A stretch of DNA of 64,000 nucleotides from Candidatus Methylacidiphilales bacterium (GTDB lineage Bacteria > Verrucomicrobiota > Verrucomicrobiia > Methylacidiphilales > UBA1321): contig JAMFSY010000017.1 of the NCBI GenBank assembly GCA_026225555.1, positions 3,602-67,601 on the forward strand, in the 5' to 3' direction. Positions within the stretch are counted from its first letter, which is position 1; the number at the start of each line of letters is the position of its first letter. Under the pieces are notes generated by a model. It made no database searches, was not told the DNA's origin, and was given only the letters and a program-made list of their open reading frames with translations. Made by a program: the position numbers and the translations under genes. Of this stretch, positions 24,847-26,699 are shown one piece after another.

Positions 24847-25233
24847 ATGAGTGAATCGCCCCAGGACAAGTTTGCGGAGTTATTTCGGATGCAGCAGTCG
24901 TTGAATGAACGCATCGGCGTCCATACCCAGGGCATGTCCGAGGAGGAGCAAACGAAATGGGTGCTGAACTACACCCGCGCCATGTCCCAGGAAATGGCCG
25001 AGCTGACCGACTCGGTGCCCTGGAAATGGTGGGCGAAGTACCAAAAATTCGACGCGCAGAATGCGAAGGTGGAAGTGGTCGATCTTTTCCATTTCGTCAT
25101 CTCCCTCGCGCAGGTGCTGGGCATGTCCTCCGACGATGTCTTCGCCGCTTATGTGAAAAAAAACGAGGTCAATTTCAAGCGCCAGGACGCCGGTTACATC
25201 GTCAAGGACGAGGCCGATTCCCGGCACATCTAG
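24847..25233 (+). CDS. Dimeric all-alpha dUTPase family protein
   Basis: MQQSLN.RI, EMAEL.DSVPWKWW, KVEVVDLFHF, YVKKNEVNFKRQ. Confidence 0.85.
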   Translation: MSESPQDKFAELFRMQQSLNERIGVHTQGMSEEEQTKWVLNYTRAMSQEMAELTDSVPWKWWAKYQKFDAQNAKVEVVDLFHFVISLAQVLGMSSDDVFAAYVKKNEVNFKRQDAGYIVKDEADSRHI

Positions 25234-25291
25234 GACAAAGACGGCGATCGATGAGACCGCCGCCTTTTCCAGGCTGGCCCGCGATCACTCC

Positions 25292-25533
25292 CTAAAAGTA
25301 GTGATCGCGAAGCGAGCCGTCGAAACCACCTTTACGCAGGCAACAAGCTTTGAAATTTGCGAGTCGAACCACAAGGGCAGAGATCGTTCCGGCCCAGCTT
25401 CTCGACCAACTCCTTGTCGCCGCCGACGATGCGGTTTCCGCGCTTCACGCGCGTTTCGGATGGGAAGCCCTTTCGGCGCTTACTGGTGCGCTCGAAAAAA
25501 GGGGGCTTCTTGATGTGAATGGATTTTTGCCAT
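25292..25533 (-). CDS. Small SEC-C zinc-finger protein split over three frames (needs two +1 shifts)
   Basis: AGGAGG Shine-Dalgarno 5 nt before ATG 25533. Frame 0 [13 protein letters not shown]; +1 frame [47 protein letters not shown]; +2 frame [19 protein letters not shown]-stop. Not in the ORF track. Confidence 0.72.
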
Positions 25534-25561
25534 ACGTGCCTCCTGTTTAGGTTAAGGACGC

Positions 25562-25590
25562 AGAATGAGAGCCAGCCGGACTGAAGTCAA
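25562..25590 (-). promoter_or_regulatory. Sigma70-like promoter of the SEC-C gene
   Basis: Minus strand TTGACT-17 nt-CATTCT, with the -10 about 28 nt upstream of the ATG. Confidence 0.6.
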
Positions 25591-25673
25591 TGTCTTCGAA
25601 AAAACGCAACCCACCGTCAGAAAATAGCAACCGAGCGTTAGCGCCCTCCCCAACTTCGGGGCATGCTAGTGCG

Positions 25674-26699
25674 ATGCAAATGTCTTCAACCGCGCAGGAT
25701 GCCTCTCTCTCCACGGGCACCTCGCCCTGGCGGCGCCTCATTTATTTCATCGTCGCGCTGAGCCTCCTCCCGATCCTGGCGATCCTGATCTGGCAGGGAA
25801 TCACCTCTCATGGCAGCCCCGACCCGACCGCGCCGCAGACCAGCCATCTCTCGGCCATCCTCGATATCTCCGTCCTCGTCTTTCGCGAAGGGCTGGAAAG
25901 CATCCTCGTCCTCGCTGCCATCACCGCCGGTCTAAGCCGCAAGCAGGAAGGGCGCTCCTTCCCGATTTTCGTGGGAGCCAGCACCGGGTTCATCGCCACG
26001 CTGATCACCTGGTACATCGTCCGCGGCATCGTGACCGATATCAGCGAGCAGGTCTCCTACCTCGCGCTCCAGGCCATCACCGGCCTGCTGGCGGTTGTCG
26101 TCCTGCTCGTGGTTATGAATTGGTTCTTCCACAAGGTTTACTGGGGCGGCTGGATCACGGTGCATAATCGCCGCAAAAAGGAGTTGCTGGAATCGGCGGG
26201 AACCACTTCGCCCGGCGTCGTTTTCTGGGGCCTCGTTTTGCTCGGCCTCACCTCGGTCTACCGCGAGGGCTTCGAAGTCGTGCTCTTCCTGCAAAGTTAC
26301 TTCCTCAAGCTGGGCGGCTGGACCGTGCTTTACGGATCGCTGCTCGGTCTGGGGCTGACCCTGATCGTGGCCTTCGTTACGTTCTGGGCGCATCAGCGGA
26401 TGCCTTACCGCAAAATGCTCATTATCACCGGCGTGCTGCTCGGTTTTGTGCTCCTGGTCATGGTCGGCGAGGAGGCCAACGAGATGCAACTGGCCAAATG
26501 GATTTCCACCACGCCGATTCACGCATTGGATAAGTTCATGCCCGATTGGACCGGCGTCTGGTTCTCCCTCTTCCCCAACGTGGAAACCATCGTGGCGCAG
26601 GCCGTGGCGGCCCTCTTGGTCATTGGCTCGTACTTCATCTCCGGTCGCGTGATGCACTCCAACACGCCCGGCGGAGAGGATGTCGAGCCGATCAGCTAG
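25674..26699 (+). CDS. FTR1/EfeU-family iron permease
   Basis: Two REGLE/REGFE motifs, multi-TM. Start uncertain (25590, 25674 or 25680). Confidence 0.88.
   Translation: MQMSSTAQDASLSTGTSPWRRLIYFIVALSLLPILAILIWQGITSHGSPDPTAPQTSHLSAILDISVLVFREGLESILVLAAITAGLSRKQEGRSFPIFVGASTGFIATLITWYIVRGIVTDISEQVSYLALQAITGLLAVVVLLVVMNWFFHKVYWGGWITVHNRRKKELLESAGTTSPGVVFWGLVLLGLTSVYREGFEVVLFLQSYFLKLGGWTVLYGSLLGLGLTLIVAFVTFWAHQRMPYRKMLIITGVLLGFVLLVMVGEEANEMQLAKWISTTPIHALDKFMPDWTGVWFSLFPNVETIVAQAVAALLVIGSYFISGRVMHSNTPGGEDVEPIS

Follow-up and report, generated by a model that had tools for sequence, protein, structure and literature searches.

A short SEC-C zinc-knuckle gene split over several reading frames is probably decoded by serial +1 frameshifting at UUU_N codons

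How can a gene for a zinc-knuckle protein be functional if its one recognizable motif lies in two reading frames and its start codon in a third? This question is raised by a short minus-strand locus in the window, i.e. the whole stretch of 64,000 nucleotides (nt) that was analysed here, which comes from contig JAMFSY010000017.1 of a Candidatus Methylacidiphilales bacterium. A reading made from these letters alone (the sequence-only reading) had proposed that the locus is a real SEC-C gene that needs successive +1 shifts at UUU_C by re-pairing of tRNA-Phe, with sequencing error or early pseudogenisation as fallbacks. Our comparison of 157 loci supports that proposal. We suggest, with a probability of roughly 0.8, that the best explanation for the locus is an intact and functional gene decoded by programmed +1 ribosomal frameshifting via tRNA-Phe slippage. 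Judged by sequence, the gene belongs to a family of basic SEC-C zinc-knuckle proteins of ~80 amino acids (aa) that is widespread in bacteria, and the shifted segments evolve as coding sequence under purifying selection.

Anatomy of the gene in the window

The gene is made up of the following elements, listed in the order in which a ribosome would meet them (sites are numbered as in the family; site 3 is not used in the window).

25544-25285, minus strand: whole gene, from the Shine-Dalgarno (SD) sequence through R-E-stop
25539..25544, minus strand: SD sequence AGGAGG, followed by a gap of 5 nt and ATG 25533-25531
25495..25533, minus strand: leader in frame A, 13 aa, starting at the ATG and ending in TTT TTT
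25491..25497, minus strand: shift site 1, UUU_CGA_G (P-site UUU 25497-25495, 0-frame A-site CGA 25494-25492, +1 codon GAG 25493-25491)
25353..25493, minus strand: core in frame B (+1), 47 aa, basic, predicted to be disordered, with the first Cys pair of the knuckle
25349..25355, minus strand: shift site 2, UUU_CAA_A (UUU 25355-25353, 0-frame CAA 25352-25350, +1 codon AAA 25351-25349)
25295..25351, minus strand: C-terminal segment in frame C (+2), 19 aa, with the second Cys pair and the conserved (F/Y)DGxxRDHYF tail
25285..25297, minus strand: shift site 4, UUU_UAG_G (UUU 25297-25295, UAG 25294-25292, then in +1 AGG GAG TGA 25293-25285, i.e. R-E-stop)
25280..25309, minus strand: hairpin CGCGAUCACU...AGUGAUCGCG, with UUUUAG of site 4 inside the loop

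The SD-led ATG and the two +1 breaks of the sequence-only reading were confirmed at their positions on the minus strand. Frame A without a shift adds R-A-H-Q to the leader and then meets TAA 25482-25480, giving 17 codons in total. Site 1 has the context CCC_TTT_TTT_CGA_G within a C5T6 run. Frame B contains no ATG, GTG or TTG from the upstream stop down to GTG 25448, and its invariant 13-residue segment is, therefore, unreachable by ordinary initiation. Site 2 (AAA_TTT_CAA_A) is positioned between the two Cys pairs; without a shift there, the frame B reading is 53 aa, terminates in QSLLPA and ends at TAA 25334-25332. The T runs at sites 1, 2 and 4 are T6, T3 and T4. Products of 17, 66 and 79 aa had been foreseen, and all three are predicted for ribosomes that fail to slip at successive sites; however, a third site had been missed. 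Frame C without a shift at site 4 stops at TAG 25294-25292, while with this shift the product reaches its full length of 81 aa and the ribosome, moved by +3 in total, is back in the frame of the ATG.

As had been claimed, the SEC-C motif is complete only after both of the first two shifts. The frame-corrected products of 79 and 81 aa match Pfam SEC-C (PF02810) with 36.3 and 36.2 bits, respectively, over model positions 1-19 of 19 (cut-off 20.4); the product that is unshifted at site 2 matches positions 1-14 only, with 24.9 bits and no CC pair. SEC-C motifs bind zinc. The four metal ligands (CxC...C[CH]) correspond to C52, C54, C63 and C64, and all four are present only with the +1 shift at site 2. 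By this model match, the window protein is a member of the SEC-C zinc-knuckle family, and we predict that it binds metal.

Outside the knuckle, no Pfam or NCBIfam family matched the basic N-terminal 45 residues or the (F/Y)DGxxRDHYFR[DE] tail, NCBIfam giving only sub-threshold matches to the C-terminal motif. A profile search of the PDB matched solely the knuckle peptides of SecA and YchJ. An AlphaFold2 model of a fully in-frame homologue (P0001), made with 45 sequences, had a mean predicted local distance difference test score of 57 and was confident only at the knuckle; in this model, the basic N-terminal half of the protein looked disordered.

Upstream of the gene, the promoter TTGACT-17-CATTCT of the sequence-only reading did not hold up: it fails a consensus scan, and its -10 element CATTCT matches 3/6 positions.

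Frame breaks and selection across the family

The corrected product has 1,966 protein relatives at E<=1e-3, mostly of 60-90 aa and with 65-85% aa identity. Because protein databases contain only gene-caller output, the family was analysed at the DNA level. Search patterns built from the core matched 599 times in species genomes of GTDB and 600 times in metagenome contigs, and 593 and 569 of these matches, respectively, encode relatives. Eighty loci were fetched from each of the two sets, and the frame layout was determined by one script on the two independent sets, using as landmarks in three frames the KRRKGFPSE core, F-K-x-C-C, the (F/Y)DGxxRxxYF tail, an SD-led start and the terminal R-[D/E]-stop. 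Frame counts refer to 81 loci of the genome set and 76 of the metagenome set, which together make up the 157 loci and represent about ten phyla.

The number of +1 shifts needed per locus was 0 in 3, 1 in 8, 2 in 29, 3 in 40 and 4 in 1 of the genome loci, and 1 in 5, 2 in 30 and 3 in 41 of the metagenome loci. Thus, at least two shifts are needed in 141/157 loci. They fall at four sites, for which motifs and shifted loci are given as genome set + metagenome set.

Site 1, F-E, from leader to core: TTT_CGA 37+32, TTT_TGA 16+10, a few TTT_CAY; shifted in 58/81 + 56/76
Site 2, F-K, before x-C-C: TTT_CAA 19+34, TTT_TAA 2+5, TTT_CAG 0+5, TTT_CCG 2+0; shifted in 23/81 + 44/76
Site 3, F-D, after the CC pair: TTT_TGA 32+22, TTT_CGA 10+4, one CTT_TGA_A; shifted in 46/81 + 31/76
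Site 4, F followed by R-[D/E]-stop: TTT_TAG 32+27, TTT_CAG 18+16, TTT_CCG 10+12; shifted in 63/81 + 57/76

The commonest layout combines sites 1, 2 and 4 (TTT_CGA, TTT_CAA and TTT_TAG), which is that of the window; one relative (L012) is identical in this respect. The slip codon is TTT in 67/67 site-2 shifts and in nearly all shifts at the other sites. The breaks always have an extra T and never a missing T, at the same four codons, in hundreds of independent assemblies and across platforms. Every junction also exists in-frame: site 1 in 7 loci, site 2 in 90, site 3 in ~69 and site 4 in ~20. Loci that are in-frame at site 2 have TTC or TTT followed by AAR. At site 3, the in-frame residue is mostly Tyr (TAC/TAT in 49 versus TTC/TTT in 16), while shifted loci carry Phe; at site 4, the in-frame form is F/Y/W-R-[D/E]-stop. 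Sites 2 and 3 are nearly mutually exclusive, with both shifted in 5 loci, only one in 129 and neither in 15. The idea that the metal site is switched by translation would apply only to the subgroup shifted at site 2; about as many relatives shift after the CC pair, at site 3.

Nearly all homologous loci have kept an SD-led ATG, at -46..-58 nt relative to the KRRKG core. Homologous leaders read MAKSHAHPDEPFF (L007), MANNPHQYDGPFF (L012) and MATHSDQDVPFF (Chthoniobacter flavus, L031), and leader and core are fused in one frame in L038 (MAKHMTEDEQPNFEITSKRRKG). The homologues, thus, break at the same Phe codons and the same motifs after an SD-led leader. Database proteins at first seemed to show the opposite, namely uniformly single-frame homologues, which would have counted against recoding, but this was overturned at the DNA level: many "single-frame" database proteins are gene-caller truncations or begin at codons such as ATC. 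The protein P0011 of Desulfatibacillum alkenivorans (L081:6001-6228) has ATC in the DNA as its database start codon; 21 nt farther upstream, an SD-led ATG in the -1 frame reads into TTT_TGA_A. The ATC start suggests that annotators found no proper in-frame start.

Five cultured isolates have the design, i.e. Chthoniobacter flavus Ellin428, Brevifollis gellanilyticus, Acidobacteriaceae KBS 96, Massilia pinisoli and D. alkenivorans. Phages gave no matches to the family, and the only matches in a plasmid collection were two degenerate copies of Candidatus Manganitrophus. No relative of the window gene above about 71% nt identity was found.

We found that the shifted frames carry the signature of coding sequence. 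Averaged over all pairs, the ratio of the proportions of nonsynonymous (pN) and synonymous (pS) differences was 0.28-0.43 in the shifted-frame segments (pS 0.64-0.75), compared with 0.89-1.42 when these bases were read in the other two frames; single-frame loci gave 0.32-0.33. In the class shifted at site 2, the KxCC segment had a pN/pS of 0.43 and the tail one of 0.38, versus 0.9-1.25 in the other frames. Codon positions 1 and 2 are conserved in 146 spliced genes, in which four-fold third positions hold 0.03-0.4 bits. Moreover, a gapless alignment of 11 loci with the layout of the window, which spans core to tail, shows 64-71% nt identity and an invariant TTTCAA. The window copy retains all residues that are invariant in the family, which include K18, R19, G22, S25, E26, V29, K30 and G32, as well as the SD sequence, the ATG and the stop of the last frame.

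Two groups of loci depart from the general pattern in their own ways. Four loci of Acidobacteriaceae (L018, L048, L080 and L092) change frame between the CC pair and the tail without a UUU; their slip site is likely CUU_CGG_C directly after the CC pair (CCL/GAGLYDG, the slash marking the slip). In a Planctomycete subgroup (L015, L016, L022, L026, L028, L033, L036, L037, L050, L059, L063, L077 and L079), the T run at site 1 is one T longer and the leader (...PFFS[SR]R-stop) is in the other frame, with its TGA overlapping the ATG of M-SKRR (ATGA). This arrangement suggests that termination-reinitiation coupling or a -1/+2 event takes the place of the +1 shift there.

How the frames are probably joined

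According to the mechanism that we favor, translation would begin at the SD-led ATG 25533, and on three occasions tRNA-Phe in the P site would give up its UUU and pair with the UUC or UUU that overlaps it, shifted forward by one base. The slips would occur in order at UUU_CGA_G (site 1, F-E), UUU_CAA_A (site 2, F-K) and UUU_UAG_G (site 4, which would add R-E), and ribosomes that did not slip would terminate after 17, 66 or 79 residues. We infer that it is the ribosome that slips, during a pause in which the A site has yet to be filled at a stop or slowly read codon. The 0-frame A-site codons are UAG at site 4 and CGA and CAA at sites 1 and 2 in the window, and UGA or UAA also occur at sites 1-3 in relatives; CGA and CAA are minor rather than rare codons in the window, and the A-site codons are forced by the F-E, F-K and F-D dipeptides. 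The yield of full-length protein would be the product of the site efficiencies and would, thereby, report steeply on the time for which the A site stays empty.

Among the alternatives, the one that survives best, although we consider it improbable, is that there is no trans-frame protein, that the leader is a regulatory upstream open reading frame (ORF), and that the downstream parts are made by reinitiation, coupling or internal starts. The Planctomycete arrangement described above, which is found in a subgroup of 22 loci, speaks for this possibility, since a leader whose TGA overlaps the ATG that opens the core is classical coupling; many Planctomycete loci have an ATG just before SKRR. By contrast, in the window and most Verrucomicrobial, Acidobacterial and Gemmatimonadal loci the core frame lacks any ATG, GTG or TTG ahead of the conserved segment, start codons are absent for the KxCC and RE segments, and leader and core are fused in-frame in 7 loci, with the other junctions in-frame in many more.

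Slightly less probable still is repair at the RNA level, in which RNA polymerase would slip on the T runs and transcripts lacking a U would be translated normally. Transcriptional slippage is a known bacterial route of recoding (PMC5009743), and the run of site 1, with six T's in the window, reaches seven in some Planctomycetes. However, the runs at sites 2 and 4 have only three or four T's, far below slippage-prone lengths, and a deletion rather than an insertion would be required each time, at three places per transcript. Transcriptional slippage would call for a long homopolymer, roughly 8-9 or more. Contigs of relatives from soil and wood metatranscriptomes, which indicate that the family is expressed, align to the DNA of C. 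flavus without gaps over site 1 (with their own SD sequence and ATG) and over site 2, arguing against U-less transcripts, although minor species would escape such contigs.

A decaying pseudogene, i.e. a single-frame gene after two single-T insertions, receives yet a little less weight. A single extra T beside T's, as in both breaks, is the commonest type of indel, a related strain has lost most of the gene (see below), intact-looking single-frame proteins exist in the databases, and a truly degenerate copy is known in Ca. Manganitrophus. The last copy (L082:4950-5230, CP114562.1; also CP114554.1) has an in-frame TGA in the knuckle, CPC changed to CLC, CC changed to CF and no UUU at site 1; it is unannotated and adjoins integrase and SIR2/ATPase genes on a 238-kb circular replicon. 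This is what real decay looks like, and the window copy differs from it. Moreover, the same breaks, codons and motifs recur in most of the 157 loci, in about ten phyla and in the five isolates; the window copy keeps its invariant residues and signals and aligns to relatives without gaps; purifying selection on the shifted frames is seen where synonymous divergence is close to saturation; and many of the single-frame database proteins are the truncations and non-start-codon beginnings described above.

An assembly of run X1 (a root-nodule metagenome) in Logan contains a 9,170-nt contig at ~55x that is identical to the window over 25100-25900, and the frame breaks are, thus, no assembly artefact. 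That homopolymer errors in sequencing or assembly made the breaks has next to no probability: site 1 lies in a C5T6 run and some related metagenome-assembled genomes (MAGs) come from long-read assemblies, but this independent short-read assembly reproduces the stretch exactly, site 2 has three T's only, and the extra T always falls at the same four codons across hundreds of assemblies. Altogether, error and early pseudogenisation, the two fallbacks of the sequence-only reading, are excluded for the family and, based on the independent contig, pN/pS and the alignment, very unlikely for the window copy.

Several observations weigh against programmed frameshifting in the window and in the family. 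CGA makes up 10% of Arg codons and CAA 27% of Gln codons, so that both are only moderately rare in the organism. The other long ORFs of the window, 30 in number, contain TTT_CGA and TTT_CAA in-frame as often as expected, so that the tetranucleotide cannot by itself act as a strong shifter. A stimulator common to the family was not found: there is no constraint on third codon positions in the 146 spliced genes, giving no pointer to an RNA structure, and only about one in four shifted sites has an SD-like motif ahead of it. With three serial shifts, the yield could be very low. The RNA contigs are assembled and come from relatives, and they hide minor variants and may include DNA. Site 1 was called with an SD-led ATG that had been chosen heuristically, and MAGs make up most of the loci. 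Three loci (L011, L032 and L042) read F-Q-x-L-L in the incoming frame past site 2 and then rejoin the tail frame, with loss of CC, in what looks like a compensating deletion. Finally, run X2 of the same study as run X1 contains a related strain with flanks ~93% identical that skips 25321-25568 (248 nt), which argues that the gene is dispensable in at least one close relative. This deletion takes away everything from the -10 region up to and including codon 70, leaving ~29 nt at the end of the tail. The first Cys is also absent in L011.

With regard to stimulators, SD-like tetramers within 15 nt upstream were found for 18/67 shifted versus 8/88 in-frame loci at site 2 and for 20/76 versus 16/68 at site 3; the window sites have no SD-like tetramer within 15 nt upstream and, thus, nothing resembling the prfB-type stimulator. 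The hairpin at 25309-25280 noted in the sequence-only reading is real, with the UAG in its loop. The 121-nt 3' end of the window gene folds with -58 kcal/mol (z = -4.8) into two strong hairpins; small hairpins similar to the one in the stop region are present in L004, L012, L049 and L058, and this feature is not general in the family. If programmed frameshifting is correct, the shift efficiency may be modest or set by the state of the cell.

Genomic context, possible role and likeness to known systems

In the window, the gene stands alone between two genes on the opposite strand.

25233..25270, minus strand: terminator-like GC-rich hairpin followed by UCUUUGUCC, between the SEC-C gene and the convergent dUTPase_2-family gene (minimum free energy structure)
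24847-25233, plus strand: dUTPase_2-family (MazG-like) gene, convergent with the SEC-C gene
25590-26699, plus strand: FTR1-family permease gene, divergent from the SEC-C gene

The sequence-only reading had noted that the gene lies divergent from an iron permease. FTR1 adjacency is kept in none of the 81 other loci, and we regard the iron link as incidental; the other window neighbours (dUTPase_2 family, PEP-CTERM and bPH_5) are likewise beside the gene in 0/81 other loci. A distance of 25 kb separates the gene from the nearest tRNA gene.

Elsewhere in the family, two kinds of context are found repeatedly. RNA-repair genes adjoin the family gene in 14/82 loci, in 13 of which they are on the same strand and directly downstream. 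These rows, which are headed by the family gene, occur in Planctomycetota, Acidobacteriota and Verrucomicrobiota and encode an AAA_33 polynucleotide-kinase-like protein, a Thg1-like polymerase for tRNA 5'-end repair, Hen1 or a fusion of HD and AAA_33 kinase domains (HD-Pnk type). Loci with such rows include L024:4001-6500, L017, L027, L029, L050, L020, L040, L047, L067, L044 and L053, and a NIF phosphatase is also found in the rows. In L067 (~850-2343), the tail frame without a shift at site 4 (TTT_CAG) stays open for 510 codons into the Hen1 coding sequence. Separately, tRNA genes flank the gene on the same strand in at least 17/120 loci, including long arrays of up to 28-29 tRNAs (L030:11-4333, L033:641-4327, L019, L001, L063, L094, L120, L123 and L138), with the recurring order ...tRNA-Arg(tcg), tRNA-Arg(gcg), gene, tRNA-Cys(gca). 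HNH genes adjoin L019, L030, L070 and L073. Long tRNA arrays have been described as silent operons that are induced by translational stress and have HNH endonuclease and RNA-processing genes nearby (PMC8421152), and metal-binding domains of the SecA type bind ribosomes (bioRxiv 10.1101/613315). Anabaena all4315, a possible member of the family, has likewise been connected with tRNA arrays and with induction under such stress (PMC8421152).

Because tRNA arrays and repair operons recur, the family may have a role when the tRNA pool is damaged or insufficient or when translation is under stress. We tentatively speculate, as one possibility that we consider rather less than an even bet, that the family is a sensor of translational distress, in which serial UUU_N sites gauge A-site vacancy and gate an effector that binds ribosomes or tRNA. 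The sites would act as an AND gate, with full-length protein made only when A sites are empty for long; triggers would be a cleaved or depleted tRNA pool, a shortage of release factors or undermodified tRNA-Phe. The basic zinc-knuckle protein would then have ribosomes or tRNA as its target and would work by itself or in concert with the adjacent tRNA arrays, Hen1, Thg1-like and polynucleotide-kinase enzymes. It counts against this part of our interpretation that the link to tRNA stress is gene neighbourhood in a minority of loci and that the window copy is stand-alone.

A full-text literature search, which covered the RNA-repair operon literature in part, found no description of the family or its recoding. 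The family is not mentioned in the Atkins 2016 review (PMC5009743), a 2025 preprint surveying frameshifts, the papers on tRNA L-arrays (PMC8421152 and PMC10272220) or papers on RNA repair that were read. A 'SecA' frameshift cluster in GeneTack (PMC3711429) was considered as a prior record and rejected, as this cluster is the true 3' end of secA. As far as can be told, the class of mechanism is known, while the gene family, its breadth, the multiple obligatory shifts and the tRNA context are new.

Should the family indeed be such a sensor, bacteria would have, in addition to prfB, another ancient +1 recoding circuit that is conserved over wide distances, and this would be the first case in which a single short gene needs as many as four shifts. 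Given its spread over about ten phyla, its two to four serial shifts in 80 codons and its natural in-frame variants at all sites, a second widely conserved +1 shift would extend the catalogue of recoding notably and would offer a natural system for analysing UUU_N slippage and its dependence on the supply of tRNA and release factors. The regulation of the tRNA-damage response is poorly understood, and the tRNA arrays and repair enzymes suggest a testable link from frame maintenance to this response. For annotation, the consequence is that current gene callers truncate genes of this family, use odd start codons for them or miss them.

The protein shares with the C-terminal metal-binding domain of SecA and with YecA and YchJ the knuckle GRND-x-CPCGS-xx-K[FY]K-x-CC, with a full model match, and only about 20 residues are common to them. 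We know of no SEC-C protein reported to need recoding. The SecA domain has been found to bind a metal (zinc or iron) as well as SecB and ribosomes (10.1101/613315).

Bacterial ribosomal +1 shifts at UUU followed by a pyrimidine, by which two ORFs are fused, have been described for the Mesorhizobium activator of an integrative and conjugative element (msi172-msi171) and for Yersinia YopN-TyeA (PMC5009743). These differ from the present family in having a single site, narrow taxa, a mobile-element or virulence-plasmid context and unrelated proteins. The AAA_UAA/UAG sites of Euplotes are similar in that a homopolymeric P-site codon is followed by a stop and several sites are possible per gene. 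However, shifting in Euplotes is genome-wide in a eukaryote with altered termination, whereas here it involves one gene family, as far as seen, in many bacterial phyla with ordinary termination.

The core motif of site 1 is the same as that of influenza A PA-X (UCC_UUU_CGU) and amalgavirus UUU_CGN, and one relative (L013) reads UCC_UUU_CGA. In these viruses, the slip of tRNA-Phe from UUU to UUC takes place with a poorly read CGN codon in the A site. The viral systems use eukaryotic ribosomes and a single site to make a minor accessory product with low efficiency; by contrast, the family is a cellular bacterial gene whose main conserved product would require the shifts.

Another parallel is prfB (CUU_UGA_C), which is the classic widely conserved +1 shift of bacterial chromosomes; we know of no other of comparable breadth. 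Both would be conserved chromosomal bacterial +1 shifts with P-site re-pairing beside an in-frame stop (in the family, at some of the sites), both have unshifted species with an in-frame junction, and both would share the logic of sensing A-site occupancy; in one relative (L079), site 3 is CUU_UGA_A. prfB differs in having one site with CUU as slip codon, an SD-like stimulator 3 nt upstream and a product that itself reads the stop. The family described here, in contrast, has two to four sites in about 80 codons, UUU as slip codon, mixed A-site codons (UGA, UAA, UAG, CGA, CAA, CAG and CCG), no general SD-like element and an unrelated protein as its product.

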